Positions 2,013 through 18,104 of a DNA stretch of 64,000 bases are shown in pieces (the stretch's first letter is position 1; each line of letters begins with the position of its first letter). The notes beneath the pieces are model-generated. The model ran no database searches. It was not told the origin of the DNA and saw only the letters and a program-made list of their open reading frames with translations. A program made the position numbers and the translations under genes. The DNA lies in contig JAYWMQ010000052.1 of the NCBI GenBank assembly GCA_035873375.1, positions 44,331 through 108,330 on the forward strand, read 5' to 3'. Source of the DNA: Nitrospirota bacterium. GTDB taxonomy: Bacteria > Nitrospirota > Thermodesulfovibrionia > Thermodesulfovibrionales > JdFR-85.

Positions 2013-3897
2013 GTGGGTGTTCCGTCTTCCTGATCCATATCTCATTGTCATCTATCTTTCTGTAAAAGATAAAGGTATCCCGGATGTATTTTGCAATCAC
2101 CGGTAATCTCTCCTCATTGGAAAAACCGTCAATCCTGTTTGCCCAGTGACTGTTCCTGTAAAGAACAAACTTCACATTATTCTTCTCAAGGCCTTTAATC
2201 ACTTCATTTTGATAGAAATACGGTATGGCAAATATTATTACAGGAAACCGGCTTGGAGACGGCCTGTCAATAAAATAATACCAGCTTGCCTCGGCCGTCA
2301 TTGTAAAGAACGATTCATCAGGGGCTAAATTATTCCGCAAAAACGAAATGGTAGCCTTGTAATTATCAGGAATGATTTCAGAATCCTTCACGCCGAGCGG
2401 AAAGTTCTCCTTGATCAGGTCCCCCCTGTATATTTGATAGACACCTAATGAGAAAATTACCGCAACTACAGCGGCAAGTAAATAGGTGTATGTTTTCGTA
2501 AAGGCATATCCACGAAGGAATTTATGACTGTAATGTTTTATGATAATATAAATAGAAAGGATATAAGTTACAGGAATGCTGTAAGCAACATGAGGCCAGT
2601 CTGAACGGCCCAGGGCAGACCTGAACAGGAACAGAGAGAGTATCAACATTGAAAACTCTACAAGGTATTTTTCCATAAAGCTCCTGACCGAACCTCTCAG
2701 CCTCCCGTTATTGAGATGTAGTTCCTGCATAAATTTAAACGCAACCCAGAACGTATTCGCTGCTATAATGACAGAGACTGCAAGAAACAATTTATTAAAA
2801 ACAGGATACACATAACCGCTCATCAATTCCCTGTACCTCGGCATCGTCAGGAAGACATATTTGAAGAAGTCGGTAAGACCTCCCCAAAGAAGAAATCCCA
2901 CCAGGAATACTGCCGACAGCAGTCCCAGAAATGAAGAGAACAGGAAATACCTGCGAAGGTTGCCTTTATGAAAATATAGAACATAGAGCACCGGAAAGAG
3001 GATCAGGTAGGCTGCAAACAGAAAGACCCCCCTGTCCACTGAGTAACCAAAAGATGCCAGCGGGATGAATGAAAACAGGAATCCTGCCATGAAAAATCCT
3101 TTTACACTGAAAGCCTGTGCCTTGCCAATATCCTGCAGTATTACAATAGTAATCAGGAATAGAAATACAGTTATATCCCTTGCCTTGATAAAGACCAGGG
3201 GAAGAAGGTGAAACATCGAGGAACTATGCAGCAAGGCCAATATAGTAACAGAAGTAAATGAATACAGGTGCCTTCCACGATAGAGCTGGAGCATGAAGAC
3301 GGAGAACAAGACAAAAGTTAATATCTTTACTATAGACTCGAGTGTCCTTACCGAACCGATGGATTTACCAAACAGGCGAAAGGCTATCACTGAACGGAGG
3401 GGATTCTCATAAAGACCGTGGAGAAATATAAAATCCTTATAGGGGGTCTGCCCTGCCATATAGGATACGGCAGGCCCGAGGGTTTCACCCTCATGAAATG
3501 AATCAAATTTTCCCGAGGCATGGAAAGTCGGGATATTAAGTGCCACAATTATCGAAAATACAATGAGAAGGATTGACAGGAGGGCCTTGACCGGAGGCCG
3601 GAAATTATGCAGGGAAGCGCGGACAGGACTGGAGGACTCCGCAAAGATGATATCATTAAGCTTCCTTCTGCCCAAAAGATATGCTATGAAGAGCAGCAGC
3701 AACGGGGACAACAGAAAAACTGCAAATCGCACTACATCGTTAGATGGATTATACTGTATCTCCGTGAGTTTTCCCTTGACACCCCACGGATTCTGAAAGG
3801 GCAGCTCGATCCTGTTCCAGAGTAAAAGTCCAATGGCAATACCCGCAAAAAAAAGGACAAACAGAACTGAATACTTTATAACCCTTTCTTGTTTCAT
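1993..3897 (-). CDS. polytopic integral membrane protein, function unknown (possibly a GT-C-like glycosyltransferase)
   Basis: 634 aa. About 12-14 hydrophobic helices span most of its length, followed by a ~170-aa soluble C-terminal domain. I recognise no catalytic motif. It lies downstream of the terminator at 3945..3982, so it is probably its own transcription unit. Confidence 0.7.
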   Translation of the reverse strand: MKQERVIKYSVLFVLFFAGIAIGLLLWNRIELPFQNPWGVKGKLTEIQYNPSNDVVRFAVFLLSPLLLLFIAYLLGRRKLNDIIFAESSSPVRASLHNFRPPVKALLSILLIVFSIIVALNIPTFHASGKFDSFHEGETLGPAVSYMAGQTPYKDFIFLHGLYENPLRSVIAFRLFGKSIGSVRTLESIVKILTFVLFSVFMLQLYRGRHLYSFTSVTILALLHSSSMFHLLPLVFIKARDITVFLFLITIVILQDIGKAQAFSVKGFFMAGFLFSFIPLASFGYSVDRGVFLFAAYLILFPVLYVLYFHKGNLRRYFLFSSFLGLLSAVFLVGFLLWGGLTDFFKYVFLTMPRYRELMSGYVYPVFNKLFLAVSVIIAANTFWVAFKFMQELHLNNGRLRGSVRSFMEKYLVEFSMLILSLFLFRSALGRSDWPHVAYSIPVTYILSIYIIIKHYSHKFLRGYAFTKTYTYLLAAVVAVIFSLGVYQIYRGDLIKENFPLGVKDSEIIPDNYKATISFLRNNLAPDESFFTMTAEASWYYFIDRPSPSRFPVIIFAIPYFYQNEVIKGLEKNNVKFVLYRNSHWANRIDGFSNEERLPVIAKYIRDTFIFYRKIDDNEIWIRKTEHPLNPDTR

Positions 3898-3944: not shown

Positions 3945-3982
3945 CACAAAAAAGGGGGGTCTATAGAATCTATAGACCCCCC
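3945..3982 (-). terminator. rho-independent terminator closing the acs/nuoEFG-like operon
   Basis: Perfect 14-bp stem: aggggggtctatag (3952..3965), loop aat, ctatagacccccct (3969..3982). On the minus strand it is followed by a T-run (complement of aaaaaa at 3947..3952). It sits 35 nt downstream of the stop at 4017. Confidence 0.85.
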
Positions 3983-4016
3983 TTTATACCAGCATATGTC
4001 TTAAACATACATCTAT

Positions 4017-6026
4017 CTAAACCTCTGCAACCGCCTGTTCAACCTCTTTCAGCCACAGAAGCCTTGAACCGTTTATCATTGTCGTATTAACGGCCTCAAC
4101 AAGTTCTTCGGGGTTAAAGGCAAGGTCTTCTCTCTTGCTGAAGGGCACGGGTCTTGCCCCTGCAGTGACTGCCTTCTTCTCCTTTTTTACGTCAGCACTC
4201 TTTGCCGCTTTCAGGTCGATGTTCATCTTTTTTGCAATGCCTTTAAGTATCTCCCTGTGGGCCTTGGCCTCTCCAAAAGGTTCAATCGCCCTGTCAAGTG
4301 TCTTGAGCCTCCCCGTATAATCCACAACTGAGCCATCCGTCTCAAAAGATGTGGCTGCCGGAAGCACAAGGTCTGCCTCTTTTGCAAGCTCACTGAGATG
4401 TGAATGCTGAACAATCAGAAAATCCACACCCGAAGGCCTCTTAAAAGGCACTTCTCCAACGGCATAGAGAATCTTTTTTGCCACGCCGGAAGTCATCCCG
4501 GTATACGTTGCTCCCTCGCCTTTGAGTCCCATAAGAAGCGTCCCCTTGGCATTGGCCTCAATCGGCACTGCCAGGGCATCACCCTTCAGGAGGGATATAT
4601 TGGCAGAGGTCTCGTACAGCAGGGGGGAAGAGAGGATTACAGGTGACTTTGCCACTGAGTACATCTCTGCCACCATTGTCATATCCTCACTCAACTCCGC
4701 TTCAGGTATCTCAAGCCCCTCAGGTGCCTTGAGCCCCAGCCCTGTCAATGCCTTTGCCAAACCTCCAAGCACAACGGCCTCATCGCCCTGAAGGGTCTTT
4801 ATAGCTACGTCTGAAAGCCTTATCTGCCCTGAATTAATCACTACCAGCTTTGCCCCCCTTGAAACCATCTTTCTCAGGGTGGCATCAAGTGCTGGAAAGA
4901 CCCTCTGCCACTGTGACGGATTGATGCCGGCAAGCAGCACAAGGTCAGCACCTTCCAGGTCAACCTCGTCTCCTAAAAGTGAAGGTGCGTCTGCATAGAG
5001 GCTCACCGTGGAATCAATGTCTTTTACTCCGGTTGTCCCGGCAAAGTTCCTTAAAGTAAGGATATCCTCGTTAAGGAGATTTCCGGTGGTCACAATCCCT
5101 GCATCAGAAGGACTCCTGAGCAGATCAGCCGCTGTTGCATATGCCTCATCCCAGCTGACCGGCTTCAGCTCACCATCAATCCTTTTCAGGGGACTCATCA
5201 CCCTTGTATCCGCATTTATAAAATCAAAACCGAATCTTCCATAGGCACAGATATAATGCCCGGCCCTGCCGTCATCTGCTCCGGCATTCACCTTTGCCAC
5301 ATCCTTGTCATGAACGCTCACGACTGTATCACAGGCGTTGCCGCAGGAGAGACATACAGAGTTGTATCTCTCATACTCCCACTCCCTGCCCTTGCGCCAC
5401 CGGTCAGCCTCAAGGAGTGCGTTTACCGGACAGGCGTCAACACAACTGCCGCAGAAGGTACAGCCTCCCTCCTGAAGGGGTTTGTCTTCTGCTGTAACCA
5501 CCCTTGAACCCACCCCACGGCCCTGGAAGTCAAGGACTGACGTTCCCTGCTCCTTGCATACCCTTACACAACGTCCGCAAAGGATACAGTAATCAGGGTC
5601 ACGATTGATGAATGGATTTTTGTTATCAACCGGAAACCCGAACTTCTTTCTCGTAAATGATGATTCCTTTATCTCAAAGTCATAGGCATACTTCTGGAGC
5701 TCACACACCCCTGCCTTTGTACATGTCATGCAGTCAAGGGGATGCATTGAGAGGATCAGGTCTATAACGAACTTTCTGAGCTCCCTGATCTTTTCATTGT
5801 CGGTAACAACATCCATCCCTGCTTTCGTCTTCATGATACATCCTGTGGTCAACCTGCCGCCAATCTCAACCATACACATCCTGCAAGCGCCGATACCCCT
5901 CATACCCTTCAGATAACAGAAGTTCGGTATATGAACACCCACGCTCTCAGCGGCATCAATAAGATTCATACCTGCGGGAACTTTATACTCTGCACCGTTT
6001 ATACTGATTTTAACCATCTTACCCAT
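4017..6026 (-). CDS. NuoG-like Fe-S / molybdopterin-oxidoreductase-fold subunit (non-catalytic Fdh-like)
   Basis: 669 aa. N-terminal 2Fe-2S ferredoxin fold (ISINGAEYKVPAGMNLIDAA...CRMCMVEI), a His-ligated 4Fe-4S region and two ferredoxin motifs (CILCGRCVRVC, CTFCGSCVDACPVNAL). This is followed by an MopB-type CxxCxxxC (CLSCGNAC) and a NuoG-like body. Good SD (AAGGAGG, 7 nt, ATG). Confidence 0.85.
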   Translation of the reverse strand: MGKMVKISINGAEYKVPAGMNLIDAAESVGVHIPNFCYLKGMRGIGACRMCMVEIGGRLTTGCIMKTKAGMDVVTDNEKIRELRKFVIDLILSMHPLDCMTCTKAGVCELQKYAYDFEIKESSFTRKKFGFPVDNKNPFINRDPDYCILCGRCVRVCKEQGTSVLDFQGRGVGSRVVTAEDKPLQEGGCTFCGSCVDACPVNALLEADRWRKGREWEYERYNSVCLSCGNACDTVVSVHDKDVAKVNAGADDGRAGHYICAYGRFGFDFINADTRVMSPLKRIDGELKPVSWDEAYATAADLLRSPSDAGIVTTGNLLNEDILTLRNFAGTTGVKDIDSTVSLYADAPSLLGDEVDLEGADLVLLAGINPSQWQRVFPALDATLRKMVSRGAKLVVINSGQIRLSDVAIKTLQGDEAVVLGGLAKALTGLGLKAPEGLEIPEAELSEDMTMVAEMYSVAKSPVILSSPLLYETSANISLLKGDALAVPIEANAKGTLLMGLKGEGATYTGMTSGVAKKILYAVGEVPFKRPSGVDFLIVQHSHLSELAKEADLVLPAATSFETDGSVVDYTGRLKTLDRAIEPFGEAKAHREILKGIAKKMNIDLKAAKSADVKKEKKAVTAGARPVPFSKREDLAFNPEELVEAVNTTMINGSRLLWLKEVEQAVAEV

Positions 6027-6112
6027 ACTCGGTCCTCCTTAAGTTATACTCTAAAATTTAAACTACCACCCTTATCCCAGGCCGCAGATTTTCGCTGGTT
6101 TACGAGATTACC

Positions 6113-6706
6113 TTATGCCTCTACTTTCTCCATCTCCCTGATATCCACAATCTCAATGGCATCGTCCTTACAGACTTTTATACACTCTCCGCACCTGGTG
6201 CACCTCATCTCTGCAATCTCAAAGGGCAGATACCCCAATCTGTAAGGAAGCTTTTTTTCTCCAATAATGGCAAAATCCTTGCAGGCCTCCAGACAGTCAC
6301 CACACATGGTGCACTTATGGGGGATAACCTTGTATACAAAGAGGGCATTGCACTCCCTGGCAGGGCATGCACCCCCTGCATGTACTGTGTATTCTTCAGA
6401 CATCTCATCAAGTGTATCAATAAAGAACCTTGCTGTATCTTTCCCCTTCTTACACATCGAGGTCTCGAGCATCTTCGGGGCAATATCGCCGATAACCCGG
6501 ATATCCTCCTCTGTCCCCCTGCCTTCTGAAAGCCTTTTGAGCCTTATTCTCATCTCATAACTGCCCATCGGACATGGAAGACACCTTCCGCACATCGGAC
6601 CATCTATAAACTCCTCAAGCAGTCTAAGGCCTTTCCGGACAACACACTTCTGCTCCTCAATCTCTTCAAATATCTCTTTTAAATTCTTCTCTTTTGTTTC
6701 AGGCAT
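6113..6706 (-). CDS. small Fe-S protein: NuoF-type C-terminal 4Fe-4S (N3-like) domain fused to a 2x[4Fe-4S] ferredoxin
   Basis: 197 aa. MCGRCLPCPMGSYEM resembles the NuoF SCGKCxPCREG cluster motif but there is no FMN/NADH-binding domain. The C-terminus has CTMCGDCLEAC and CTRCGECIKVC ferredoxin motifs. SD is GGAGG. Confidence 0.8.
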   Translation of the reverse strand: MPETKEKNLKEIFEEIEEQKCVVRKGLRLLEEFIDGPMCGRCLPCPMGSYEMRIRLKRLSEGRGTEEDIRVIGDIAPKMLETSMCKKGKDTARFFIDTLDEMSEEYTVHAGGACPARECNALFVYKVIPHKCTMCGDCLEACKDFAIIGEKKLPYRLGYLPFEIAEMRCTRCGECIKVCKDDAIEIVDIREMEKVEA

Positions 6707-6845
6707 AATACCTCCGCTGTAACAGTTTAAGCCATGTTAAACCTCATTGAGGATTGGAAATCTCAGATCTGAAATTGTAAATTTATTCTGTAAACTCACT
6801 GATTCCGGGCTTTTATTTCCCAATCTTCAATCTATAAATTTATTT

Positions 6846-8738
6846 TTAAACCTTTCCTGCTTCTCCGGCAACCTTCTCTATCTTTACTGCATCAACCGGG
6901 CATGCGGCATAACACGCCTTACACTTTGTACAGTACGCCTCGTCAATAAAGAACTTATCCTTCAGTTCCCTTACAGCTCCAAATGCACATGCCTGCTTGC
7001 AGAGGCCACAGAGGAAACATTCGGTATGATCTATTCTGTAGCGGCCAAGACCGTTACAGGCCTTTGCCCTGCAGTACTTATCATAGATGTGCTCTTCATA
7101 CTCCTCCCTGAAATACCTCAGTGTACTCAACACAGGGTTGGAAGCACTCTGACCAAGACCGCAGAGTGAGCCCTCCTGGATAAGCCTGCCAAGTTCTTCA
7201 AGCCTCTCGATATCCCCGTGTGCGCCCTTGCCGCTGACTATCCTCTCAAGGATTTCGAGCATCTGCGAGGTACCAATCCTGCATGGCGGACACTTGCCGC
7301 AGGACTCGGATTGAGTAAAAGAAAGAAAATACCTTGCCATATCAACCATACAGGTATCCTCATCCACAACCACCATCCCGCCGGAGCCCATCATGGAGCC
7401 AAGCTCCCTGAGGGAATCAAAGTCAACCGGGTTATCGAGATAACTCTCAGGTATGCAGCCACCTGACGGTCCCCCGGTCTGTACAGCCTTGAATTTTTTA
7501 TTTCCCATAATTCCGCCGCCGATCTCAAATATTATCTCCCTGAGAGTGGTTCCCATCGGAACCTCGACAAGACCGGTATTCTTGACCTTGCCCGTCAGGG
7601 CAAAGACCTTTGTCCCGGGCGAATTTTTGGTTCCTATCGACAGGAACCAGTCAGCACCCTTTTCTATTATCGGAGGTACACAGACATATGTCTCGATATT
7701 GTTGAGGTTGGTCGGATACCCCCACAAGCCTCCGCCTGGCTCTGAGAGTCTCGGAGGTCTCGGCCTCGGGAATCCGCGCTCTCCCTCGATAGAGGCCACA
7801 AGGGCAGTTGATTCTCCACAGACAAAGGCACCTGCACCCTCACGTAAGTCAAGGTGAAAACTGAAATCAGTACCAAGTATATTATCACCAAGGAGGCCCA
7901 GATCTTCAGCCTGACCTATGGCTGTCTTCAGGTTCTTCACTGCAAGCGGATACTCATGACGGACGTAAATAAAACCAAACTCTGCATTAATTGCACGCGC
8001 ACAGATCAACATCCCCTCTATAAGGCTATGGGGGTCACCCTCCATGATGGCCCTGTCCATAAACGCCCCTGGATCACCCTCATCCCCATTGGCAACCACA
8101 AATTTTATATCTCCGGAGGCCTTTACAGTATGCCGCCACTTCTTTCCGGCAGGGAAACCTGCACCACCACGTCCGCGCAGGTTTGCCTTGTCCACTTCAT
8201 CGAGGATCGCTTCAGGGGTCATGCCGGTAAGGGCCTTTTCAAGTGCGGTGTAGCCGCCAACAGCTATGTAGTGGTCTATATTATTGGGATCAACAACTCC
8301 GTTGTATTTTAGTGCAATCCTGTACTGTTTTTTATAAAAAGGTAACTCGTCAGCCATCTCATAGGGTTCATGAAGGATCGAATCCCTGTAAAGGAGGTGC
8401 CTTACCGGAAAGCCCGCTGCAAGTGTATTTGTGACAATTTCCTGTGCATCCTCGGTCTTGACCCTCTGATAGAAATAACCAGTCGGCTCAACCTTCATGA
8501 GTGGACCCTTCTGACAGAGTCCCTGACAGCCTGTCTTGACAATATCTACGTCGATTCCCTTGTCCGCAGCACTCTTTTCGATATTATCAACTACCTTCCT
8601 TGCACCTGAGGCCATACAGGCTGTACCTGTACAGACCCGGATCCTCTCCTTGTCTTCCTTAAATGTCTCATCCTTGAGCAGGAGTCTCAGATTTTTCAGG
8701 TCTTCCATGTTTTTCAGTCTTGCCATATCACTCCTCAC
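6846..8738 (-). CDS. NuoF/HydB-like NAD(H)- and FMN-binding Fe-S subunit
   Basis: 630 aa. N-terminal thioredoxin-like 2Fe-2S domain (CTGTACMASG...CQGLCQKGP). NuoF core motifs GRGGAGFPAGKKW, ANGDEGDPGAFMDR and ESCGKCPPCRIG. C-terminal 2x[4Fe-4S] (CFLCGLCKQAC, CTKCKACYAACP). The track start at 8738 is GTG. The ATG at 8726, preceded by GAGGAG, may be the real start. Confidence 0.9.
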   Translation of the reverse strand: MRSDMARLKNMEDLKNLRLLLKDETFKEDKERIRVCTGTACMASGARKVVDNIEKSAADKGIDVDIVKTGCQGLCQKGPLMKVEPTGYFYQRVKTEDAQEIVTNTLAAGFPVRHLLYRDSILHEPYEMADELPFYKKQYRIALKYNGVVDPNNIDHYIAVGGYTALEKALTGMTPEAILDEVDKANLRGRGGAGFPAGKKWRHTVKASGDIKFVVANGDEGDPGAFMDRAIMEGDPHSLIEGMLICARAINAEFGFIYVRHEYPLAVKNLKTAIGQAEDLGLLGDNILGTDFSFHLDLREGAGAFVCGESTALVASIEGERGFPRPRPPRLSEPGGGLWGYPTNLNNIETYVCVPPIIEKGADWFLSIGTKNSPGTKVFALTGKVKNTGLVEVPMGTTLREIIFEIGGGIMGNKKFKAVQTGGPSGGCIPESYLDNPVDFDSLRELGSMMGSGGMVVVDEDTCMVDMARYFLSFTQSESCGKCPPCRIGTSQMLEILERIVSGKGAHGDIERLEELGRLIQEGSLCGLGQSASNPVLSTLRYFREEYEEHIYDKYCRAKACNGLGRYRIDHTECFLCGLCKQACAFGAVRELKDKFFIDEAYCTKCKACYAACPVDAVKIEKVAGEAGKV

Positions 8739-8791
8739 CGGGTTTGTTTGTAATTACTGTTAATTATAGAGAAAAGCGAATCCTCATCACT

Positions 8792-9277
8792 TTACTCTTC
8801 TTCAATCATCTTTATAAGCTCATCGACCTTCTTCGGTCCAATCTCGCCCACAACCTCATCATTCACCGTGGCAACCGGGGCAAGTCCGCAACAACCAACA
8901 CACCCGACTGTCTCAAGCGTCATTGCAAGGTCTTCCGTGGTCTCGCCAACACCAACATTAAACTCCTTCTCAAGTACCTCAAGCACCTTTCCGGCACCAC
9001 GAACATGACAGGCAGTCCCCATACAGACCCTCACAATCTTGCGGCCCCTTGGCGTAAAATGAAACTGACCATAAAAACTTGCCACGCTGTAAATCTCTGC
9101 CAGGGGCAGATCAAGCTTTCTGGAAAGCCTCTCAAGGGCCTCTCCGGGAAGAAACCCGTAATCCTCCTGTATCCTGTGGAGAATGGGTATCAATAATCCC
9201 TTTTTCCTGTCATGCTCACATATTACCCGTCCAACCTTTCCAATCTCTCTTTCAATGTCAAGACCTTCTATGTCCAT
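8792..9277 (-). CDS. NuoE/HydC-like 2Fe-2S subunit
   Basis: 161 aa. Thioredoxin-like 2Fe-2S pattern CMGTACHVRGA...VGCVGCCGLAPV, typical of NuoE/HndA. Confidence 0.9.
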   Translation of the reverse strand: MDIEGLDIEREIGKVGRVICEHDRKKGLLIPILHRIQEDYGFLPGEALERLSRKLDLPLAEIYSVASFYGQFHFTPRGRKIVRVCMGTACHVRGAGKVLEVLEKEFNVGVGETTEDLAMTLETVGCVGCCGLAPVATVNDEVVGEIGPKKVDELIKMIEEE

Positions 9278-9327: not shown

Positions 9328-11316
9328 TTACTTCACCCCTTCATGCGGTCTTGCTGCTGCCTCAAGCTTACGCCTGTCTGCCATGGTCATCAGTTTTCTC
9401 TCGGTACCAAATCTGCCAGGCTCATATTTTCTGAGTTTCAGTCCATCACGCTTAATGTCTATGGCTTCAAGTGTCTTCTTCAATATCTCTTCAGGGTCCG
9501 GAATAAAGTCAAACTTTCCGCCAAACCTCTCTTCCCACTGTTTTGTCATTATCTCCTGCACCTGACTGCTTGCCGCAACAGGGCTCTCTGAACCAAAAAT
9601 AACATACACCCCTGAAGCAACAAAGTAACATCCGATTGCAAGGGCCTTCTCACTCATCCATTCAGGCGCAATACCGACTGCCGGCAGACCGGAAATATCA
9701 TCGCCAAGCCCTCCTTCCTCGACCATCTGAGTTACCACGGTAAGTATCCTTGAATTGTCAACACACGAACCAAGATGAAGTACCGGCGGCACCCCAATGG
9801 CCTCACAGACCTCTCTGAGTCCCGGCCCCGCCATCTCAAGGGCTGTCTCAGGTGTCATAAAGCCCGCCTTGGCACATGCCGCAGCACCGCACCCGGTTGA
9901 CACTACAAGAACGTCATTTCTGACAAACTCCTCTGCAAGGTAATTATGCATACTGTCCTGGGCAATGCGCGGGTTGTTACAGCCAACTATCGCCACAACG
10001 CCCCTGATCCTTCCTGCTATAATGGCATCATTTAGGGGTCTGAAAGACGCCCTGAACCTCCCGCCCTGCATGTATTCAATATACTCATGTGAAAACCCTG
10101 CAATCACCGGAGTGGTCTCATGCACCCTGCTTCCCTCTGTGGTACGGTTGGCATAGTTATCAATGGCAAGCCTCAGCACCTCTCTTGCCACCTCTTTTGC
10201 CCTGTGTTCATCGTACTCTATATGAACTGCATCAATCATCTTCCCCTTGCTGGATGTGGTCACTATTTTTGTATGGAACTTCTTTGCAGCCTGGGCAATT
10301 GCCGGCATTATACACTGGACATCCACCATTATTGTCTCTGCAAGGCCCGTCATTACAGCCAGCTCCTGGTTAAGGAATCCACCGGCTGTGGGAATCCCGT
10401 GCCTCATCAGGACCTCATTGGCAGTACAGCACATCCCGACCAGGTTAATCCCCTTTGCCCCTTTCTGACTTGCATATTCAAGCATCCCGGACTCCTGAGA
10501 GGCCTCAACCATCATCTCAGCAAGTGAAGGCTCATGGCCATGAACCACAACATTGACCTCATCTTCCTTCATGATTCCTATACTCGCCTCAGAACGTTTT
10601 GGCGATGGGGTGCCAAAGAGTATGTCTGTAATGTCGGTGCTGAACATTGAGCCGGCCCACCCATCGGCAAGAGAGACCCTCAGTGCAGAGGTCATAAGGT
10701 TTTCAGGGTCCTGGTCCACACCCATGTTTGTCCTGTGCATGGCCTCGGCAACCTCACGGTCTACACCCCTGGGCACTATTCCCCACTTGCGCCAGATCTC
10801 CTGACGCTTCTCCGGTGCCCTCTTGATAAAGGATATCTCTCCCCTCTGCTGGCCAAACTGCGCGATAATATTCTCTGCCACCTCTTTTGCTATATCTTCC
10901 TTTGTCCTGCCCTCAGTTGAAATATCGAGTATACCGGCCAGTTTTTTCAGCTTCCCTTCGTCCTTGATCGTAAAGTCCGGGGCCTCCCCTGTGGATGCCG
11001 CAAGGAGTGTATAGGCCATATCCCTCGCATGGTCACTATGAGCTGCCGTGCCTGCAGCCACCATCCTCAGGAAATTCCTGGCAGTCACGACCGGAAGGGT
11101 TGCTCCGCATACACCTTCGGCATTCTCTTCAGCATCGGAACCAACAAGCCTGCAGGGCCCCATAAAACAGATCTTGCAGCATGCCCCCGAGTGTCCTATC
11201 GGGCATGGCTTTAATTTCTCCGCCCTGTCAAAGGCTGTCTCAAGACCATGCGACTCTGCCCACTCCACTATCTCCTCGGCAACCTTGTCGGCACTTTTTA
11301 TTACCTTTTCAGACAT
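9328..11316 (-). CDS. cooS: anaerobic Ni-Fe-S carbon monoxide dehydrogenase catalytic subunit (CODH of CODH/ACS)
   Basis: 662 aa. N-terminal B/D-cluster cysteines CPIGHSGACCKICFMGPCRL, with the HGHEP and C-cluster region conserved. SD is GGAGG, 6 nt, ATG. Adjacent to acsB. Confidence 0.95.
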   Translation of the reverse strand: MSEKVIKSADKVAEEIVEWAESHGLETAFDRAEKLKPCPIGHSGACCKICFMGPCRLVGSDAEENAEGVCGATLPVVTARNFLRMVAAGTAAHSDHARDMAYTLLAASTGEAPDFTIKDEGKLKKLAGILDISTEGRTKEDIAKEVAENIIAQFGQQRGEISFIKRAPEKRQEIWRKWGIVPRGVDREVAEAMHRTNMGVDQDPENLMTSALRVSLADGWAGSMFSTDITDILFGTPSPKRSEASIGIMKEDEVNVVVHGHEPSLAEMMVEASQESGMLEYASQKGAKGINLVGMCCTANEVLMRHGIPTAGGFLNQELAVMTGLAETIMVDVQCIMPAIAQAAKKFHTKIVTTSSKGKMIDAVHIEYDEHRAKEVAREVLRLAIDNYANRTTEGSRVHETTPVIAGFSHEYIEYMQGGRFRASFRPLNDAIIAGRIRGVVAIVGCNNPRIAQDSMHNYLAEEFVRNDVLVVSTGCGAAACAKAGFMTPETALEMAGPGLREVCEAIGVPPVLHLGSCVDNSRILTVVTQMVEEGGLGDDISGLPAVGIAPEWMSEKALAIGCYFVASGVYVIFGSESPVAASSQVQEIMTKQWEERFGGKFDFIPDPEEILKKTLEAIDIKRDGLKLRKYEPGRFGTERKLMTMADRRKLEAAARPHEGVK

Positions 11317-11411: not shown

Positions 11412-13610
11412 TCATATTATCGATTCCATCTCAAGGGCTGGATGACCGGCCTCAGTCAGAAACTCAACCAGCTTCTCGGAGTCCTCACATACGGTCTCAT
11501 CAGCAATCTTGTCAAGCAGGTCAGGAACGCCTTCTGCTTCGGCTATCTGCTGAAACTTGTCTTTCACCCTCTCCTTAATCGCCTTTGTCATCCAGACAAT
11601 CCTCTTTATACCACCATCACCAAACAGGAATTTCTTGCTGGTTATAAAATTCACACCAATTCCCATAAAGCCCGGGGTCTGCACCCCGCCGCCCACTGTT
11701 CCGGCAAGTGTCGAGAATTTCATGCCTATCGGGGTCATCCCTGTATGTCCGCGCTGAACAATCATTACACCATTGGCCTCGGGTATGATTGCAACGATAC
11801 ATTCAAAGCAGCCACAGGAGGTCATGGGATTTTCCATGATTGTATAAAGGTTCAATGTCTCAACCGCCCCGCCTGACGCCTGTTTCAGATAATCATCAAC
11901 ACCCGTATAGCGGCCGAACCTCGGGTCAACAAGCTCACCCTTTGGAACAGGCTGGTTTCCGCCGGTCGGGTCGATCTCGTAGGCTGCCTTGCCGTCAAGC
12001 CAGTTATAGGCACCACAGAGCCCGAGTCTCTCAGGTGTTATGACACAGACATGACTCGGGGCAAAGGACTGACAGAGCAGACAGGAATAAAAGGTATCCA
12101 CGGTCTCATCGGTAAGGGATGCAAGCCTCTCATCACGCAGCTTCCAGTCAATCCTTGCCTCCTCTCTCAACTTGACAACATCCTCCTCGTTGGTAAAGAG
12201 CGTGACCGCTACCTTATCAACTATGGTGCTGAACCTCTTGTGTGTCATTGCATGGTGTATCTTTCCAATATCCTCAAGGCTGAAGCCGGCCTGCTTTGCG
12301 GCATGGCTGATCCTTATCCAGTTAATATCCCTCTGTCCCATGTGCCATATGCCCTGGCCTTCGTTTATATTATGGTGAAGTCTCCGCTCGACAATGGAGA
12401 GGAAATCCGGCTGCATCTTTCTTCCTGCAATCTCAACCAGGATTCCAAGGGGCATTACACCTCCCTGTTCATACCTCTCCTTCCAGTTCTCACCGATAAT
12501 GTTTACCTTGCCGTCCTCTATCTCTTCAAGCTCTCTCAGCCTTGCCCATTCAAAGGCAGGTGAGCGCGTTCCGCCAAACTCGATAAAGGTCTCCTCCTTA
12601 CGGATCCTCTCACCCTCAAACGCTGGGCCGTAGGCAATCGGAATCGGCGGTTTTTCAACAAGTACCTTAAGCCCCCTCACCTCAATCGCCTTCTGGACAA
12701 TCTTGTCGTGATCAAGCTCTTTATCCACCTCTTCATACGTACATACACCCGTGGGGTGAATCACGGGGACATCAGTATCACAGATGGCCGGGAAGCCCAT
12801 ATTTATAGCGCCGGCCCCTGTTGCCCACTTGACATCATCAAGCCCGCCCAGGGGAAGGGCAAAGGCAAAGACCCTGTCTTTCTGATATTTCAAATTGCCC
12901 TTGTAGTCTCCGGGTTTTACACCCCCAAAGATCATGGAGGCCCTTATTGCCCAGTCAAGGGCATAAAGTGTATGCTCGGTCTCCGTGCCAAGTGGCACTA
13001 TATATACATCCCAGCCAAGCTCCACCTTCTTTCTCAGAAGCTGCTTGGTAACGCTGTCACCATTGGAACTTCCGGAAAGGAAGACAAGGATGTTCTTCTC
13101 CTGCAATTCCCTGACAATCCTTACCGCTGTATCATCATCAGGGGCTGCACCTATAATAGCCGCAAACCCCGGCATCCTTCCATCAACAAGCTGAATACCA
13201 AGATTACGCTGTACTGTGTCTGTAATAAACCCGTTATAAACATAACCTGTCTCAGGGTCTTTTGTCGGCTCCAGACCCTCAATATACCTCAATGCAAGCC
13301 AAATCTCCTCAGCAAAAAGTGTGGCCATCCCGGAATCAAGGGCCTCTCCCAGATAAGGCGTCCATATCTTCTCCTCAGGCTCATCATGAAGAAGATCCTG
13401 GGTCATCCTCAGTGCGGTCTTCATGTCCTTAATCGTCTTTACCTCAAAACCCGTAATACCATAAATCAACGGCAGGGCATAGGCAGTGTCTGGAAACTCG
13501 AAATGGTAATCCTCACCCTTTTCAGCAATAACCTTCTGTAGTAAATCCTCAGCCTGCCTGAAGACTTTATGTGACCCTCTTATAGCAGCCGAGGCTATTA
13601 TCTTTGACAT
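11412..13610 (-). CDS. acsB: acetyl-CoA synthase (CODH/ACS A-cluster subunit)
   Basis: 732 aa, the size and sequence style of bacterial AcsB. A-cluster Cys-Gly-Cys motif present (MTSCGCFECIVA). SD is AGGAGG. Confidence 0.95.
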   Translation of the reverse strand: MSKIIASAAIRGSHKVFRQAEDLLQKVIAEKGEDYHFEFPDTAYALPLIYGITGFEVKTIKDMKTALRMTQDLLHDEPEEKIWTPYLGEALDSGMATLFAEEIWLALRYIEGLEPTKDPETGYVYNGFITDTVQRNLGIQLVDGRMPGFAAIIGAAPDDDTAVRIVRELQEKNILVFLSGSSNGDSVTKQLLRKKVELGWDVYIVPLGTETEHTLYALDWAIRASMIFGGVKPGDYKGNLKYQKDRVFAFALPLGGLDDVKWATGAGAINMGFPAICDTDVPVIHPTGVCTYEEVDKELDHDKIVQKAIEVRGLKVLVEKPPIPIAYGPAFEGERIRKEETFIEFGGTRSPAFEWARLRELEEIEDGKVNIIGENWKERYEQGGVMPLGILVEIAGRKMQPDFLSIVERRLHHNINEGQGIWHMGQRDINWIRISHAAKQAGFSLEDIGKIHHAMTHKRFSTIVDKVAVTLFTNEEDVVKLREEARIDWKLRDERLASLTDETVDTFYSCLLCQSFAPSHVCVITPERLGLCGAYNWLDGKAAYEIDPTGGNQPVPKGELVDPRFGRYTGVDDYLKQASGGAVETLNLYTIMENPMTSCGCFECIVAIIPEANGVMIVQRGHTGMTPIGMKFSTLAGTVGGGVQTPGFMGIGVNFITSKKFLFGDGGIKRIVWMTKAIKERVKDKFQQIAEAEGVPDLLDKIADETVCEDSEKLVEFLTEAGHPALEMESII

Positions 13611-13729: not shown

Positions 13730-15073
13730 TTACGCTGCAGCAGAGCGAAGAAAAGTGGGAAGGGCATTCGCCTCCCTTGGTCCGACCGTGACCTTCCAGC
13801 CCTCAAGCTTGTCCTCAATAGCACCGCTGAGGATCGCCACATAACCCGGAATTATTAATTCCCGGTGATTAACCTCGTTCTCGATCCCGCTCTCCTTTAT
13901 GAAATTTGCTATTTTTGAACCTGTGAATTTACCGGCTGCCCAGGCAGTAAGCACTGACAGGCCCTCACAATCCATAATGGCAAGATGTGCAGGAACCTTT
14001 GAATTCTCCACCTCACCCGATACTATAAAGTAGGTAAGCGAGAAATTAGTGGTGATAAGAAGGGGTGAGTCAGGGGTTGCTTCTCCGATCTTGTATATCT
14101 TCTGCTCAACCTGCATAGGCACCTGCGGGTCTGTGTAAACATTCTGCCTCAGAGTAAAGAGTGCGAGATTCTTCCATTTCTCCGCAGAACTGATAACTAT
14201 TGTGGATGCATACTTTGCAATACCAAGCCCTGCAATTAGGGATTCAAAGAGTGCGTCGCTGCGCTGTGCAAAGTTTATTACAGGATATCCAAGGGGCTTG
14301 AAGTTCTTTTTTATAGCCGCCCTCCTGATAAAAGTGTTGTACTCAAGCATCTCTTTTGCAGAGCCTGCTCCGGGGTCTATTAACATATCCTCAACCCCTA
14401 AGGACTTTATCTTCTCCGTAAGAGATGAAAGGGCTTCAAGGCCGTCTGCCTTCACACCCAATGCAGCCTTGGCAGACCTGGCAATCTCTGCCATTTTTTC
14501 GGCATTTGCCTCTGTAGCCCCATAGAGAACCGCATTCTTTCCATTAAAGGGTTTTATGGCGGCGGCAGCAGCATCTGTATTTTCCGTACCAACAATTACT
14601 GCTACATCCGGGGCCTTTTGAGCAACCTTTTCCGCCAGGGTCCCGAGCCTTCCTGCATCTCCGGAGTCATTACTCAAATATACGGCATCTATCCTCAGAA
14701 GCTGCCCTACCCTGTTGATCTCGGAGCCAAGGACATCCTGGATCTTTGCCTCAACCACATCATCGCTGTCCGTGTCCTTAATCTCAAGTGCAAGGGCCGG
14801 AGGATTGACAAACTTCTTTTCGTGCCTGAAAAGCACAGTCTCCTCTCCCATCTTTACAGCCCTCTCACCAGCGCCAAGTGTTACCGGCCTTACAGGTGGA
14901 GCCGAGGCCTCACCAAGTGTTGCCTTTGCCTCATCAGAGACATCAGGACAGGCATCCAGAGAGACTTGTCTCTGGGCAAGCTTCATTGCAAAGGCAAGGC
15001 ATGTGGGAAAACCGCACTTCTTGCAATTTGTCTTTGGTAGTAATTTAAATATCTGAACCCCGGTTAATGCCAT
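13730..15073 (-). CDS. acsC: corrinoid iron-sulfur protein large subunit
   Basis: 447 aa. N-terminal 4Fe-4S motif TNCKKCGFPTCLAFAMKLA followed by a TIM-barrel and corrinoid-binding body. Sits in an acsB-acsC-acsD-acsE context. Confidence 0.93.
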   Translation of the reverse strand: MALTGVQIFKLLPKTNCKKCGFPTCLAFAMKLAQRQVSLDACPDVSDEAKATLGEASAPPVRPVTLGAGERAVKMGEETVLFRHEKKFVNPPALALEIKDTDSDDVVEAKIQDVLGSEINRVGQLLRIDAVYLSNDSGDAGRLGTLAEKVAQKAPDVAVIVGTENTDAAAAAIKPFNGKNAVLYGATEANAEKMAEIARSAKAALGVKADGLEALSSLTEKIKSLGVEDMLIDPGAGSAKEMLEYNTFIRRAAIKKNFKPLGYPVINFAQRSDALFESLIAGLGIAKYASTIVISSAEKWKNLALFTLRQNVYTDPQVPMQVEQKIYKIGEATPDSPLLITTNFSLTYFIVSGEVENSKVPAHLAIMDCEGLSVLTAWAAGKFTGSKIANFIKESGIENEVNHRELIIPGYVAILSGAIEDKLEGWKVTVGPREANALPTFLRSAAA

Positions 15074-15155: not shown

Positions 15156-16094
15156 TTACATAAGTTCATCCATAAGCTGCTCCACTGCCTCTACTGCCTT
15201 CGGATGACGCATTATCAACAACTCCGAGCCTGCCATCAGAAGTGATGAAGCTGTCATGGCCTCCCAGGCAATGCCCCTCTCCTCAAGACTGCCCCACTCG
15301 GGAAGCACGTCCTCCGGGGCCTGTGTCTCCTTTATCTTCCATACATACATCCCCACATCTGCAAGCATCGGCGGCTGCATGACCGCATCATTCTGCGCCA
15401 ATGCGGCAAGCCTTATCCGCTCCATAACTGAATATGTATACTCAAGCCCGTAACCAAGTGCGGAACACATCGGGTCTGTAATAAGCTTTTCCTTGTCAAA
15501 GCCCATCTGCGTAAGCAGGATGTTGAGCTGTTTTGACAGGTTAATGTCCAGTTCACTCATGGCAATAAGTTTATGCCCGTTTGCCATTGCCGCTGCTGCA
15601 ATGGTCTTGTAGTTTGCCTCCTGGGCCTTGCCGATTATACAGTTATGCCCTTTTGCCGCCTCAGCCGCCTTCACCAGAACCTCCGAGTCCTTCTCCACAT
15701 GATTGCTGCCGAGGACAATAAGGGGAACCTTTATTGCCCCAAGGACGTCACTCACGGTCCTGGCGGCATCCTCTGCTGTCAGATTCTTGCTGTCGGGATG
15801 TGTCCCAACAAGCCTAATGACAATGGCCTTTGCCTTCAGGTCCTCCTCGCAGTATTTTGCCCAGGTTACAGGATCCCCGCTTACACCGTCAAAAACCTTC
15901 CTTACAGTCTCGGGCCAGTCTTCAGGAGAAACATCCTGTATCTCATATGCAATCAGGGGCCTGTTCGGAATCTCTCCTTCAAAGGAGTGAAAGGGTAGGG
16001 TATTCTCACCTCCAAAGGTCTGTTGAACCCCGGTTCCTATTGTCACAGGAAAGACCCTGCCTGCAAAGCTTTCCTTTGGTGGTACAAATGCCAT
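15156..16094 (-). CDS. acsD: corrinoid iron-sulfur protein small subunit
   Basis: 312 aa. Position between acsE and acsC, with a TIM-barrel-like sequence typical of CFeSP delta. SD is AAGGAGG. Confidence 0.9.
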   Translation of the reverse strand: MAFVPPKESFAGRVFPVTIGTGVQQTFGGENTLPFHSFEGEIPNRPLIAYEIQDVSPEDWPETVRKVFDGVSGDPVTWAKYCEEDLKAKAIVIRLVGTHPDSKNLTAEDAARTVSDVLGAIKVPLIVLGSNHVEKDSEVLVKAAEAAKGHNCIIGKAQEANYKTIAAAAMANGHKLIAMSELDINLSKQLNILLTQMGFDKEKLITDPMCSALGYGLEYTYSVMERIRLAALAQNDAVMQPPMLADVGMYVWKIKETQAPEDVLPEWGSLEERGIAWEAMTASSLLMAGSELLIMRHPKAVEAVEQLMDELM

Positions 16095-16188: not shown

Positions 16189-16971
16189 TTACATCTCCAG
16201 ATAAGAGTGGGCATACAGTGTCCTGTTCATAATAACGTCTATTGTCTTGACGGTCTCGATAACCTCCGCAGGGTCTGCAATAGCTGCAGTAAGCCCCTCA
16301 TAAATAAGAAGTGCGAGATAGTATTTATTGAGGATATGCCTGACGTTTTTGGGACAACCATTGGATATATTGCTCAGGCCGACAACAGTCTTTATGGGGG
16401 GATCATTCAGTTCCTGAAACATCTTTATAGTCCTGATCACCTTTACCGCCTGCTCCTGTGTGGTGGCAATCTGAAGGACAAGAGGGTCCAGATAAAGGTT
16501 TTCAAGGGACAGGCCATACTCCATTGCCCTTGCCATAATCTCTGCTGCAATAGCAGACCTCTCTTCCTCGTCCGCAGGCAGCCCGCCCTTGCCTACAGTC
16601 AATCCTATAATCAGACTATCGTATTTGGCTGCAAGTTCAAGCATCGGAAAACGCTCAGGGTCATTGGAAGTAGAGTTAATCATGGGTCTGCCGTAGTCGT
16701 TGTTGTGAACCTTGAGGCCGGCCTCAATCGCTGCATAATTCGTGGTATCAAGACATACAGGAAGTGATACAGCCTCCTGAATGGTGGTAACCATCCATTC
16801 CATAAGCTCTTCACCACCATCCTCTGCAGGGCCGATATTGGCATCAATCATCCCTGCACCGGAGTTCTTCTGCGCAAGGGCAATCTCCTGAATGGGTCCC
16901 TTGTCCCGCTTCATCATGGCTTCTCTAACGCGTTTTGCAATTATACTAAGTTTCTCTCCAATAATAAGCAT
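16189..16971 (-). CDS. acsE: methyltetrahydrofolate:corrinoid/iron-sulfur protein methyltransferase
   Basis: MLIIGEKLSIIAKRVREAM...DANIGP matches the AcsE/MeTr (pterin-binding) N-terminus. The track start at 16980 is a GTG embedded in the SD (GGAAGGAGTG). The ATG at 16971 has proper spacing. Confidence 0.9.
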   Translation of the reverse strand: MLIIGEKLSIIAKRVREAMMKRDKGPIQEIALAQKNSGAGMIDANIGPAEDGGEELMEWMVTTIQEAVSLPVCLDTTNYAAIEAGLKVHNNDYGRPMINSTSNDPERFPMLELAAKYDSLIIGLTVGKGGLPADEEERSAIAAEIMARAMEYGLSLENLYLDPLVLQIATTQEQAVKVIRTIKMFQELNDPPIKTVVGLSNISNGCPKNVRHILNKYYLALLIYEGLTAAIADPAEVIETVKTIDVIMNRTLYAHSYLEM

Positions 16972-17048
16972 ATCAAGCACTCCTTCCTGGAATTTTTTAT
17001 TTGTTATTTTTCATCTTTCATTTTTCATTTATTAAAAAAGAGAACTCT

Positions 17049-17336: not shown

Positions 17337-18104
17337 TTAGGGGATATTGAGACCGTCAAGTATGGTGAAAACAGAGCGGAGCGCAGGGGAGTTATCAGGC
17401 AGCTCAATCAGAGGTCTCCCCTGAAGGTCATATTCAAATATTTTTCCATCCTGGGGAACAAGCCCTGCACAATGAAGGCCCAGCCCATCGGCAAGTTTCG
17501 TGAGGGTCTCACCCTCCTCACCGGAGACCCTGTTTATAATCAGGACACTCCTTTCGATATCAAGTTTCAGCTCATCCACAAGATCCCTGATCCTCCCGGC
17601 CGTCTGTATTCCCTTTACAGTCGGGTCACTCACTATCAGCAAAAGATCCACCTTGTGTGTGGTCCTCCTGCTGAGATGCTCCATACCCGCCTCATTGTCA
17701 ATCACCACATAGGGATAGCGCTCTGCAAGTATGTCCGTATATTTTCTGATAATATTATTGGCCGCGCAGTAACAGCCCGGCCCTTCGGGCCTGCCCATCA
17801 CCAGCAGATCAAAACCCTTTGCCTCTATCAGGGCCTGATTAATCTGATATTCAAAGAGCTCGTCCATACTCATGCCCCCCGGCCTTTCACTGCCGGAACG
17901 TATGGTCTCAAGTGAGGACTCCCTCAGTTGTCCCACAGAGGCATGAACCTTTACGCCAAGCGCTTCATTCAGGCATGCGTTACTGTCAGCATCAACTGCA
18001 AGTACAGGCCCCCGCCTCTTCTCAACAAGATACCTCACTGTCAGCCCAGCTATACTCGTCTTTCCTGTACCGCCTTTACCTGCAAGAGCAATCAAAAACG
18101 ACAT
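17337..18104 (-). CDS. cooC: CODH nickel-insertion accessory ATPase (CooC/AcsF family)
   Basis: 255 aa. Deviant Walker A at the N-terminus (IALAGKGGTGKTSIAG), a MinD/ParA-like fold and the CxC-type motif region GPGCYC. Confidence 0.92.
   Translation of the reverse strand: MSFLIALAGKGGTGKTSIAGLTVRYLVEKRRGPVLAVDADSNACLNEALGVKVHASVGQLRESSLETIRSGSERPGGMSMDELFEYQINQALIEAKGFDLLVMGRPEGPGCYCAANNIIRKYTDILAERYPYVVIDNEAGMEHLSRRTTHKVDLLLIVSDPTVKGIQTAGRIRDLVDELKLDIERSVLIINRVSGEEGETLTKLADGLGLHCAGLVPQDGKIFEYDLQGRPLIELPDNSPALRSVFTILDGLNIP

Follow-up and report, generated by a model that had tools for sequence, protein, structure and literature searches.

A Bfu-type flavin/Fe-S module at the end of a Nitrospirota CODH/ACS operon and Ni-CODH as its candidate redox partner

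The CODH/ACS operon and its four-gene tail

The DNA analysed here (the window) is a 64-kb stretch of a Nitrospirota contig (JAYWMQ010000052.1) that carries, on its minus strand, an operon for CO dehydrogenase/acetyl-CoA synthase (CODH/ACS). Four co-directional genes lie downstream of cooS, which encodes the nickel-containing CODH (Ni-CODH), and are closed by a strong terminator (Table 1). They encode NuoE-, NuoF- and NuoG-like proteins, referred to below as BfuC, BfuB and BfuA, together with a 197-aa protein (p197). It is this flavin/Fe-S module, and its possible coupling to CODH, that is considered here. A first-pass annotation of the same DNA had placed four ORFs at the positions listed in Table 1. 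All four are present on the minus strand, with 161, 630 (from a GTG), 197 and 669 aa, and the motifs it quoted, CGRCLPCPMG for the 197-aa protein and KDIDSTVSLYADAP for the 669-aa protein, are found in the translations.

The genes acsB, acsC, acsD and cooS are co-linear (9328-16094, minus strand) and all score above the curated NCBIfam cut-offs, as expected of a bacterial CODH/ACS operon. The top-scoring solved relatives of CooS include the CODH chains 6ytt_B and 9fzy_B, from entries named CODH/ACS complexes. From cooS to the last gene the intergenic gaps are 50 (cooS to bfuC), 53, 139 and 86 bp, and a consensus scan found no terminator-like site within them. The terminator named in the first-pass annotation proved to be real: 33 bases past the last stop codon begins a G+C-rich hairpin with 13 bp and no mismatch, to which T6 is attached, with a folding free energy of -29.5 kcal/mol (z = -5.0; 0/200 shuffles fold equally well). 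The promoter/terminator consensus scan missed this site (3946-3983), which was confirmed instead by reading and folding of the sequence. Promoter-like sites in the same scan were at chance level (21 found vs 19.1 expected) and were not used. Given the short gaps, the lack of an intergenic terminator-like site and the strong terminator after the last gene, the four tail genes and the upstream acs/cooS genes are predicted to form one transcription unit.

Table 1 Positions of the operon genes, the terminator and other features in the window
Feature	Position	Strand	Length (aa)	Evidence or remark
cooC-like Ni-insertion ATPase	17337..18104	minus		operon gene 1; Pfam CbiA/ParA-type NTPase, directly upstream of acsE; name from context
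acsE-like methyltetrahydrofolate:corrinoid methyltransferase	16189..16980	minus		Pfam Pterin_bind, 6e-16; name from context
acsD (corrinoid Fe-S protein small subunit / delta)	15156..16094	minus		NF003376, 425.5 bits vs cut-off 280
acsC (corrinoid Fe-S protein large subunit / gamma)	13730..15073	minus		NF003195, 567.9 bits vs cut-off 306
acsB, acetyl-CoA synthase	11412..13610	minus		NF040764, 998.5 bits vs cut-off 800; Pfam ACS_CODH_B_C, CdhC, CODH_A_N
cooS/acsA, Ni-CODH catalytic subunit, proposed catalytic partner of the module	9328..11316	minus		TIGR01702, 619.7 bits vs cut-off 478
bfuC / hydC / nuoE-like, [2Fe-2S] subunit	8792..9277	minus	161	PF01257 thioredoxin-like [2Fe-2S], 1.4e-47; predicted ligands C85, C90, C126, C130
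bfuB / hydB / nuoF-like flavoprotein	6846..8738 (probable start 8726)	minus	630	full-length HydB matches; listed start GTG
p197, free-standing paralogue of the BfuB C-terminal third	6113..6706	minus	197	NADH_4Fe-4S (PF10589) and 4Fe-4S dicluster only
bfuA / nuoG-like scaffold	4017..6026	minus	669	Fer2_4, NADH-G_4Fe-4S_3, dicluster, PF00384
Intrinsic terminator closing the operon	~3946..3983	minus		GGGGGGTCTATAG-ATT-CTATAGACCCCCC then TTTTTT; found by reading the sequence and folding
ORF right after the operon terminator	1993-3897	minus	634	~11-13 predicted transmembrane segments and a C-terminal soluble domain
M1 peptidase fusion directly upstream of cooC	18134-21151	minus	1005	M1 peptidase, ChaN/Tiki haem-binding-type and PDZ domains
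ruvB	21292-22300	minus	248	listed ORF starts inside the Walker A region
Four consecutive genes	23224-35041	minus	869-928	Ig-like ASH/HYDIN-type domains

Subunits of the module and the missing catalytic site

The best solved relatives of BfuC are the HydC subunits of bifurcating enzymes, with HydC of T. kivui HydABC (8a6t_C, 4.8e-45, 157 bits) first and HydC of the Acetomicrobium mobile NiFe-HydABCSL also close (7t2r_C, 1e-43). Its PF01257 domain and four predicted ligands (C85/C90/C126/C130) correspond to the single [2Fe-2S] cluster (C1) of a BfuC. BfuB matches HydB chains over its full length, at 759 bits for T. kivui (8a6t_B), 755 bits for A. mobile NiFe-HydB (7t2r_B) and 726 bits for A. woodii HydB (7q4v_B), with S. 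ovata Stn at 689 bits. In contrast, the NuoF chains of complex I reach 282-372 bits and align with the core only (~residues 150-565), leaving the N-terminal 2Fe-2S and the C-terminal 2x[4Fe-4S] domains uncovered, and the NuoF equivalog TIGR01959 is matched at 463.2 bits, below its cut-off of 558.65. The nuoF-like ORF itself stands as first annotated; its start is probably ATG 8726 rather than GTG 8738, since residue 5 (MARLKN...) is where the alignment with HydB of T. kivui sets in.

Pfam and NCBIfam place an N-terminal thioredoxin-like 2Fe-2S domain, a Complex1_51K FMN domain, SLBB, NADH_4Fe-4S and a C-terminal 4Fe-4S dicluster along BfuB. The sites that define a BfuB can be located within these domains. 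They comprise the FMN/NADH loop G189-P196 (GRGGAGFP; PF01512, 1.5e-40), the B1 (N3-type) [4Fe-4S] ligands C480/483/486/526 (PF10589, 3.1e-34), whose columns align with HydB of 8a6t and 7t2r, and the N-terminal [2Fe-2S] site B5 (C36/41/71/75; PF01257 at residues 29-104). The B3 and B4 sites are found as CxxCxxCxxxC motifs at 574-584 (C574/577/580/584) and 603-613 (C603/606/609/613), and the B2 site C463/H550/C556/C561, including its conserved His, aligns with C438, H525, C531 and C536 of A. mobile BfuB. According to Schut et al. 2022, non-bifurcating homologues are without the B2-B5 clusters and without the B2 His, which is absent in just 8/1558 BfuB sequences (PMC9304861). The nearest full-length relatives of BfuB and BfuC are subunits of enzymes for which bifurcation has been shown by experiment, and BfuB has all the discriminating sites of Schut et al., hence the two proteins are assigned to the bifurcating HydB/HydC (Bfu) type and not to the complex I type. 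Classification by sequence models agrees, the NuoF- and NuoG-like proteins falling below the respective equivalog cut-offs. With every defining feature that can be tested in sequence present, the module is placed in the Bfu family.

BfuA contains five predicted Fe-S motifs, namely a [2Fe-2S] site (C37/48/51/63), a His-ligated [4Fe-4S] site (H95/C99/C102/C108), the clusters C147/150/153/157 and C189/192/195/199, and a MopB-type CxxCxxxC...C motif (C225/228/232/260). The ligands of all five are invariant in 40 homologues. The first-pass annotation had suggested that this protein has neither a Cys or Sec at the Mo/W-ligand position nor an H-cluster domain, and both suggestions hold. In the HMMER alignment with R. 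capsulatus FdsA (6tg9_A), the region (...VCHSPT) with the pair that we take to be Cys386-His387 aligns with A345-D346 (SLYADAPS) of BfuA. All 40 family members have Y344, and at least 90% of them keep S342 and D346. No match to the pterin-capping domain PF01568 was found by Pfam at E<=1e-3, and neither Pfam nor NCBIfam detected an H-cluster or hydrogenase large-subunit domain. Hydrogenase models match the Fe-S region only (residues 5-212; NF040763 at 210.9 bits vs cut-off 765), and the Fdh (formate dehydrogenase) model TIGR01591 is matched at 125 bits vs a cut-off of 666. The best NCBIfam match is the NuoG model TIGR01973, with 304.7 bits and hence short of its cut-off of 470.05.

Comparison of BfuA to solved structures points in the same direction. 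By sequence, complex I 7arc_G is matched along the full length (residues 5-602), HydA of FeFe HydABC over residues 4-208 only. The AlphaFold2 model, mostly with pLDDT >90 in the MopB-like part (residues 213-665), superposes over the full length of both proteins on NuoG/75-kDa of complex I and on A. mobile NiFe-HydA (7t30_A, TMq 0.61, TMt 0.62), while Fdh alpha chains give partial coverage (TMt 0.46-0.56). The C-terminal domain of BfuA is thus predicted to be a MopB remnant without cofactor. Taken together, the Ala-Asp at the Cys/Sec-His position, the lack of PF01568 and of an H-cluster, the missed family cut-offs and a fold like that of NuoG and A. mobile HydA identify BfuA as a predicted cofactor-less NuoG-type scaffold without a catalytic site, so that the module appears to be without a catalytic partner of its own, as the first-pass annotation had proposed.

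The opposite view, in which the 669-aa protein would be catalytic in a cryptic way and the module a conventional NAD-dependent Fdh or hydrogenase for the methyl branch of the pathway, can draw on the top solved sequences, which are NAD-dependent Fdh alpha chains (6tg9_A, 1.4e-58), and on a moeA gene (molybdopterin biosynthesis) located ~2 kb away on the opposite strand. However, the Fdh match is limited to residues 2-404, BfuA is ~290 residues shorter than FdsA (669 vs 958 aa), and synteny with moeA is confined to the closest relatives (4 loci). The conserved residues around the Ala-Asp pair, the missing pterin cap and the low scores of the Fdh and hydrogenase models argue against it as well. 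A catalytic site in this protein failed every test made, i.e. the HMMER alignment to FdsA, the Pfam/NCBIfam scans and the fold search, and was rejected; even an unusual Fdh or hydrogenase is therefore considered extremely improbable.

The p197 protein aligns with HydB residues 466-627 and is a complete copy of the last ~165 residues of BfuB. The first-pass annotation had described it as a NuoF cluster motif plus a ferredoxin; the corresponding domains (PF10589 and the dicluster) are present, and the description falls short in that the whole C-terminal module of BfuB is copied. Predicted sites are a B2-like site (C21/H109/C114/C119), a B1-like [4Fe-4S] site (C39/42/45/85) and 2x[4Fe-4S] (C132/135/138/142 and C169/172/175/179), which gives ~four metal sites in total. 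All of its Cys residues (15/15) and H109 are invariant among 29 homologues. For the AlphaFold2 model (pLDDT 79), the top 11 matches are all C-terminal parts of bifurcating BfuB chains (TMq 0.50-0.71). The family comprises 478 clusters at 90% identity, with essentially every shown taxon label being Nitrospirota, and just 18 representatives were found at E<=1e-30 among 1.84 billion proteins. In one related locus (L078) p197 is fused in frame to BfuB, yielding an 896-aa protein. This fusion and the near-confinement of p197 to these clusters suggest that it is a subunit of the Bfu complex, where it would represent a lineage-specific extra subunit, a new accessory part copying the BfuB C-terminal module. 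The region of BfuB that is copied by the conserved p197 metal sites is the part thought to handle the low-potential branch.

Gene neighbourhoods, proposed coupling to CODH and other features of the window

A scan of 185,579 species genomes returned 296 relatives. Neighbourhoods were determined for the best 80 of these 296 (L-numbered loci) within +/-10 kb flanks by tblastn and by clustering of the ORFs, the conserved clusters being classified with Pfam; two metagenome loci, L081 and L082, extend the set of paralogous clusters described below. The labels of the best 80 are of Nitrospirota type or name no phylum, except for one metagenome-assembled genome (MAG) labelled Nitrospinota. The order acs-cooS-nuoE-nuoF-p197-nuoG is kept in 51 of ~57 informative Thermodesulfovibrionia (Nitrospirota) loci: acsB-cooS-nuoE-nuoF-p197-nuoG is seen in 46/80 loci, and 5 more have cooS at a contig edge. 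Across these acs-linked loci the identity of the NuoG-like protein goes down to 54%, and the median gaps are ~50 bp for cooS-nuoE and 3 bp for nuoE-nuoF. In "Bacterium BMS3Bbin07", the counterpart of the 669-aa protein is ~96% identical to that of the window.

In a second type of cluster (L014, L056, L081, L082), which is devoid of acs genes, a shorter cooS paralogue is interleaved with the module. Two gene orders occur, p197-nuoG-cooS-nuoE-nuoF (L056, L081) and cooS-nuoF-DsrE-like-MBL-nuoE-p197-nuoG (L014, L082; MBL, metallo-beta-lactamase fold), and the paralogous L014 and the acs-linked L022 come from the same MAG. These genes are part of a larger conserved cluster (L081:1-17328, L082:2332-18865, L083:4081-15706, L014, L056), with a GntR regulator upstream and, also upstream, five ORFs without annotation, among them those for a PNPOx-like and a ~592-aa protein. 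It further holds DUF2267, LarC-like Ni-insertion fragments, a LarB-like AIR carboxylase, and DsrE-like and MBL-fold proteins, so that nickel-pincer-cofactor (Lar) genes adjoin the CODH-Bfu set; in L083 cooS-nuoF is present, and nuoE, p197 and nuoG were not found nearby.

Other copies of the module are associated with pyruvate:ferredoxin oxidoreductase (POR) genes. In L009 (12019-15102) and L026, porGDAB directly continues the acs-cooS-Bfu operon after nuoG, while L078 (2843-10658) consists of the BfuB::p197 fusion, nuoG and porGDAB with no cooS and no adjacent nuoE. Three copies (L076, L059, L063) stand alone, those of L059 and L063 being accompanied by a second nuoEF pair; BfuB of L076 carries a C-terminal CBS-domain pair (779 aa). 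Seven loci (L037, L041, L042, L060, L067, L074, L080) have a second full-length tandem BfuB besides p197, 64-71% identical to the window protein, and the BfuB lineage appears to have duplicated more than once within the cluster. The genes downstream of the module are mostly housekeeping (scpA, 20 loci), NfnAB-like pairs (7 loci) or porGDAB (3 loci). The NfnAB-like pair, a GltD-type Fer4_20/Pyr_redox_2 protein plus a DHODB_Fe-S_bind protein, is divergent beside the module in L076 (3777-6106) and lies a few kb downstream in L034 (16031-18351), L046, L047, L048, L064 and L072. No hydrogenase or Fdh gene was found within 10 kb in the 80 related loci. A constant pairing with a separate enzyme of this kind, which the first-pass annotation had named as a finding that would tell against its idea, is therefore not seen locally.

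The likeness of BfuA to NuoG raises the possibility that the four genes encode the detached NADH-input (N) module of an 11-subunit membrane complex-I-like enzyme, i.e. a split Nuo-Bfu passing electrons from NADH and ferredoxin to menaquinone, in which case the position next to acs would reflect co-regulation only. The full-length match to NuoG/75-kDa in both sequence (7arc_G) and fold, the rank of TIGR01973 as best NCBIfam model and the presence of 11-subunit Nuo operons without NuoEFG in members of the class are consistent with this, as is the placement of Nuo-Bfu in Planctomycetes and Nitrospirae (clade 39; PMC9304861). However, the described Nuo-Bfu has BfuABC inside the nuo operon (PMC9304861), whereas the genes here and in 51 related loci follow cooS, and a nuo gene was identified neither in the 64 kb of the window nor among the conserved genes annotated in the 80 loci. 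The equivalog cut-offs for NuoG and NuoF are missed (304.7 < 470; 463 < 559), and neither p197 nor the cooS-interleaved and POR-linked paralogues have a complex I counterpart. The cultured Thermodesulfovibrio sp. N1 provides one data point: its paper reports 11-subunit Nuo clusters with NuoEFG missing and leaves CODH and the Wood-Ljungdahl pathway unmentioned, which suggests the module tracks acs rather than nuo. We consider a detached N-module distinctly improbable.

The arrangement is better explained if the Bfu-type NADH and ferredoxin module uses CODH, here that of CODH/ACS, as its catalytic partner, a reading for which comparative and model-based evidence makes the chances, in our view, slightly better than even. 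A Bfu core depends on a third redox partner, with mid-potential electrons exchanged by way of BfuA (PMC9304861), the scaffold is catalytically empty and Ni-CODH is the sole consistently co-encoded redox enzyme; hence CODH is put forward as that partner. Docking onto CODH is proposed because the link to cooS survives both gene rearrangement and duplication, and Schut et al. argued likewise for Codh-Bfu from a cooS embedded among bfu genes (PMC9304861). Coupling of CODH/ACS to NAD(H) had been raised as a possibility in the first-pass annotation, and it gains support in silico from the Bfu-type NuoE/F proteins, the conserved link to cooS and the interleaved cooS paralogues. Probably, therefore, this lineage has the key reaction of the Wood-Ljungdahl pathway wired to NADH besides ferredoxin.

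In the proposed mechanism, the four gene products would form a soluble HydABC-type (Bfu-family) flavin/Fe-S complex, with the FMN and NAD(H) site on BfuB, that takes the upstream-encoded Ni-CODH as its third-substrate module in place of a catalytic site of its own. BfuC-BfuB-p197-BfuA would dock onto the CODH dimer of CODH/ACS, and p197 and/or the Fe-S chain of BfuA would carry electrons between the clusters of CODH and the BfuBC core. Interconversion of CO2 and CO at the C-cluster would then be coupled simultaneously to NAD+/NADH and ferredoxin, with bifurcation when the reaction runs oxidatively and confurcation when it runs reductively. During carbon fixation NADH would replace part of the costly reduced ferredoxin, and acetyl-CoA oxidation would yield NADH together with reduced ferredoxin.

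The potential of a two-electron couple shifts by ~30 mV per decade of product concentration, and enzyme-bound CO that is kept at a very low steady state by the pull of ACS would have an effective potential between those of NADH and ferredoxin, which is the Bfu working range. Given this shift and the pull of ACS, tunnelled low-level CO would act as a mid-potential substrate. The same low-CO argument is made by Schut et al., who list potentials of -520 mV for CO, -420/-500 mV for ferredoxin and -320/-280 mV for NAD (Table 1 of PMC9304861).

Several points weigh against CODH as the partner in a bifurcating complex. At its standard potential (-520 mV) CO is more reducing than both ferredoxin and NADH, hence bifurcation is not thermodynamically required and would need the effective CO level to be very low. 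In the B2 site of BfuB, Val501 occupies the variable position of the fifth ligand, where A. mobile has Cys and most FeFe enzymes Thr. The stand-alone and POR-linked copies without cooS in cis (L076, L059, L063; L078) indicate the module is not obligatorily tied to CODH in cis, and its partner appears to be the CODH subunit, sometimes POR, and not ACS as such. All support is comparative or structural, obtained in silico. Bacterial CODH/ACS enzymes are regarded as working with ferredoxin in its free form, and a co-regulated soluble NADH:ferredoxin enzyme would account for the synteny without a physical complex.

Such an enzyme would balance NADH and ferredoxin, be merely co-transcribed with CODH/ACS owing to the shared ferredoxin pool and communicate with it through free ferredoxin, its third partner being encoded elsewhere (e.g. 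Hdr/MetF-type, Nfn-type, hydrogenase or Fdh) or missing altogether. This is in line with the stand-alone copies, with L078 beside POR genes and with the NfnAB-like pair that adjoins the module in L076 and lies a few kb downstream in six loci. Nevertheless, a third partner giving or taking electrons through BfuA is needed by a Bfu core (PMC9304861), and none of the 80 neighbourhoods has a hydrogenase or Fdh gene within 10 kb. The five-cluster chain of BfuA ends in a dead MopB domain, and so resembles a docking scaffold like A. mobile HydA, while the interleaving of cooS in two gene orders is not readily explained by co-regulation alone. We therefore regard a purely soluble redox-balancing enzyme as rather unlikely.

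The proposal of CODH as partner can be taken one step further, with less confidence. Thermodesulfovibrionia may possess a physically integrated, bifurcating CODH/ACS supercomplex in which p197 wires CODH into the empty NuoG-like scaffold, the same portable module being used on a second CODH and on POR. This extended model is offered as a tentative one, whose chances we place a little short of even. If true, acetyl-CoA synthesis would be driven by NADH and reduced ferredoxin together, or its cleavage would yield both, and no CODH/ACS before this one would have been linked to NAD(H); the Wood-Ljungdahl pathway would exist here in a variant that saves energy.

For the CODH step of the Wood-Ljungdahl pathway, dependence on ferredoxin alone is usually assumed, and this assumption is built into calculations of the ATP yield of acetogens, of sulfate reducers that are autotrophic and of acetate oxidisers. 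Our findings come from comparative genomics and structure prediction throughout; should the proposed coupling be correct, low-energy subsurface, hydrothermal and magnetotactic Nitrospirota would fix CO2 at a different cost, or obtain a different yield from the oxidation of acetyl-CoA. The module would further provide a natural, abundant example of the so-far only predicted Codh-Bfu class, and a portable bifurcating cassette attachable to different low-potential CO2-reducing enzymes (CODH, POR).

Some further features of the window lie outside the module. The 634-aa ORF that follows the operon terminator has no Pfam or NCBIfam match and is conserved only in the six closest relatives, with a G+C content of 0.43 in its 2-kb stretch vs ~0.50. 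The four consecutive genes with Ig-like domains, which look like a paralogous surface-protein array, include one M6 (immune inhibitor A) peptidase domain and one rhodanese domain. In the case of ruvB, the frame is open for ~90 codons further upstream of the listed start and encodes the conserved N-terminus (...GPPGLGKTT...). A frameshift or truncation was rejected on this basis, the short ORF being an effect of ORF calling. As the upstream stretch contains no ATG, GTG or TTG, ruvB would have either an unusual start codon or a sequence error.

Comparison with known systems

The N-module of complex I (NuoE/F/G) shares common ancestry with the three subunits and has the full NuoG architecture including a cofactor-less MopB domain. 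It differs from the module in the NuoF alignment, which covers the core only, in the location of the genes, here outside a nuo operon, and in the equivalog cut-offs, which are not reached. FdsABG of R. capsulatus (6tg9) likewise has a NuoEFG-like electron-transfer core and provides the top solved match over the N-terminal 400 residues of the 669-aa protein. FdsA, however, has a Mo-bisPGD site, Cys386-His387 and a pterin-capping domain, in place of which BfuA has Ala-Asp and no cap. The R. capsulatus Fdh belongs to the non-bifurcating homologues with a BfuB lacking B2-B5 (PMC9304861).

Among bifurcating enzymes, the [FeFe] HydABC complexes (T. kivui 8a6t, A. woodii 7q4v, T. maritima 7p5h) rank first overall as relatives in sequence of both the NuoF-like and the NuoE-like protein, with the same BfuB domain order and Cys/His motifs. 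HydA of these enzymes has an H-cluster domain, whereas the protein here has the MopB remnant instead. The NiFe-HydABCSL of A. mobile (a Type 3 Bfu, 7t2r/7t30) is alike in BfuB (755 bits), BfuC (1e-43) and BfuA size (692 vs 669 aa), with the model match of BfuA spanning both proteins. Its catalytic site is located in separate subunits that feed the BfuBC core through BfuA (PMC9304861). The five complete and invariant motifs, including the MopB-type one, suggest that BfuA here is of the same five-cluster kind as in Type 3. The differences are the partner, a [NiFe] hydrogenase (HydSL) vs the presumed Ni-CODH here, the lack of a p197-like subunit in A. mobile and a BfuA identity of ~24%.

A genomic arrangement that would link Ni-CODH to pyridine nucleotides is also known from the CooS-CooF-FNOR clusters (cited in Inoue et al. 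2019, PMC6344411). These involve unrelated proteins (a CooF polyferredoxin and a FAD/NAD(P) oxidoreductase), have no Bfu core and no NuoG-like scaffold, and are found outside the CODH/ACS operon. The same study lists NADH:ubiquinone-oxidoreductase-like COG1034/1894/1905 among the neighbours of CODH genes in a Wood-Ljungdahl pathway context, and a nuoEF set near CODH/ACS has been mentioned for the candidate phylum NPL-UPA2. A 2026 eLife paper on CODH contexts does not mention NADH, Nuo or bifurcation. Our literature search found no paper analysing the Nitrospirota acs-Bfu operon, p197 or the paralogous clusters, and the term "Codh-Bfu" was found only in Schut et al. 2022.

It is Codh-Bfu to which the module corresponds most directly, as a BfuABC-type set clustered with a Ni-CODH gene for which coupling of CO/CO2 to NAD(H) and ferredoxin has been proposed. 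Codh-Bfu was predicted in 2022 from 4 Firmicutes-only sequences (BfuB clade 49) and is uncharacterised biochemically; it is a Type 2 enzyme, with a BfuA lacking the A3 and A5 clusters and with three extra CODH-related subunits (Schut et al., PMC9304861). The Ni-CODH gene in or next to bfuABC is found here as well, with a gap of 50 bp from cooS to bfuC in the window, and with cooS adjoining the module in 51 loci and interleaved with it in L014, L056, L081 and L082. The Type 2 pattern, in contrast, is not observed, as BfuA here has five complete invariant cluster motifs, their mapping onto A1-A5 being inferred. The module further differs in its occurrence in Nitrospirota, in the dead MopB domain of BfuA, in p197 and in its CODH, which is encoded in a complete CODH/ACS operon. 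NAD(H)/ferredoxin coupling to CODH was thus already predicted as a general idea, and what is new is a lineage-wide Nitrospirota variant with p197.

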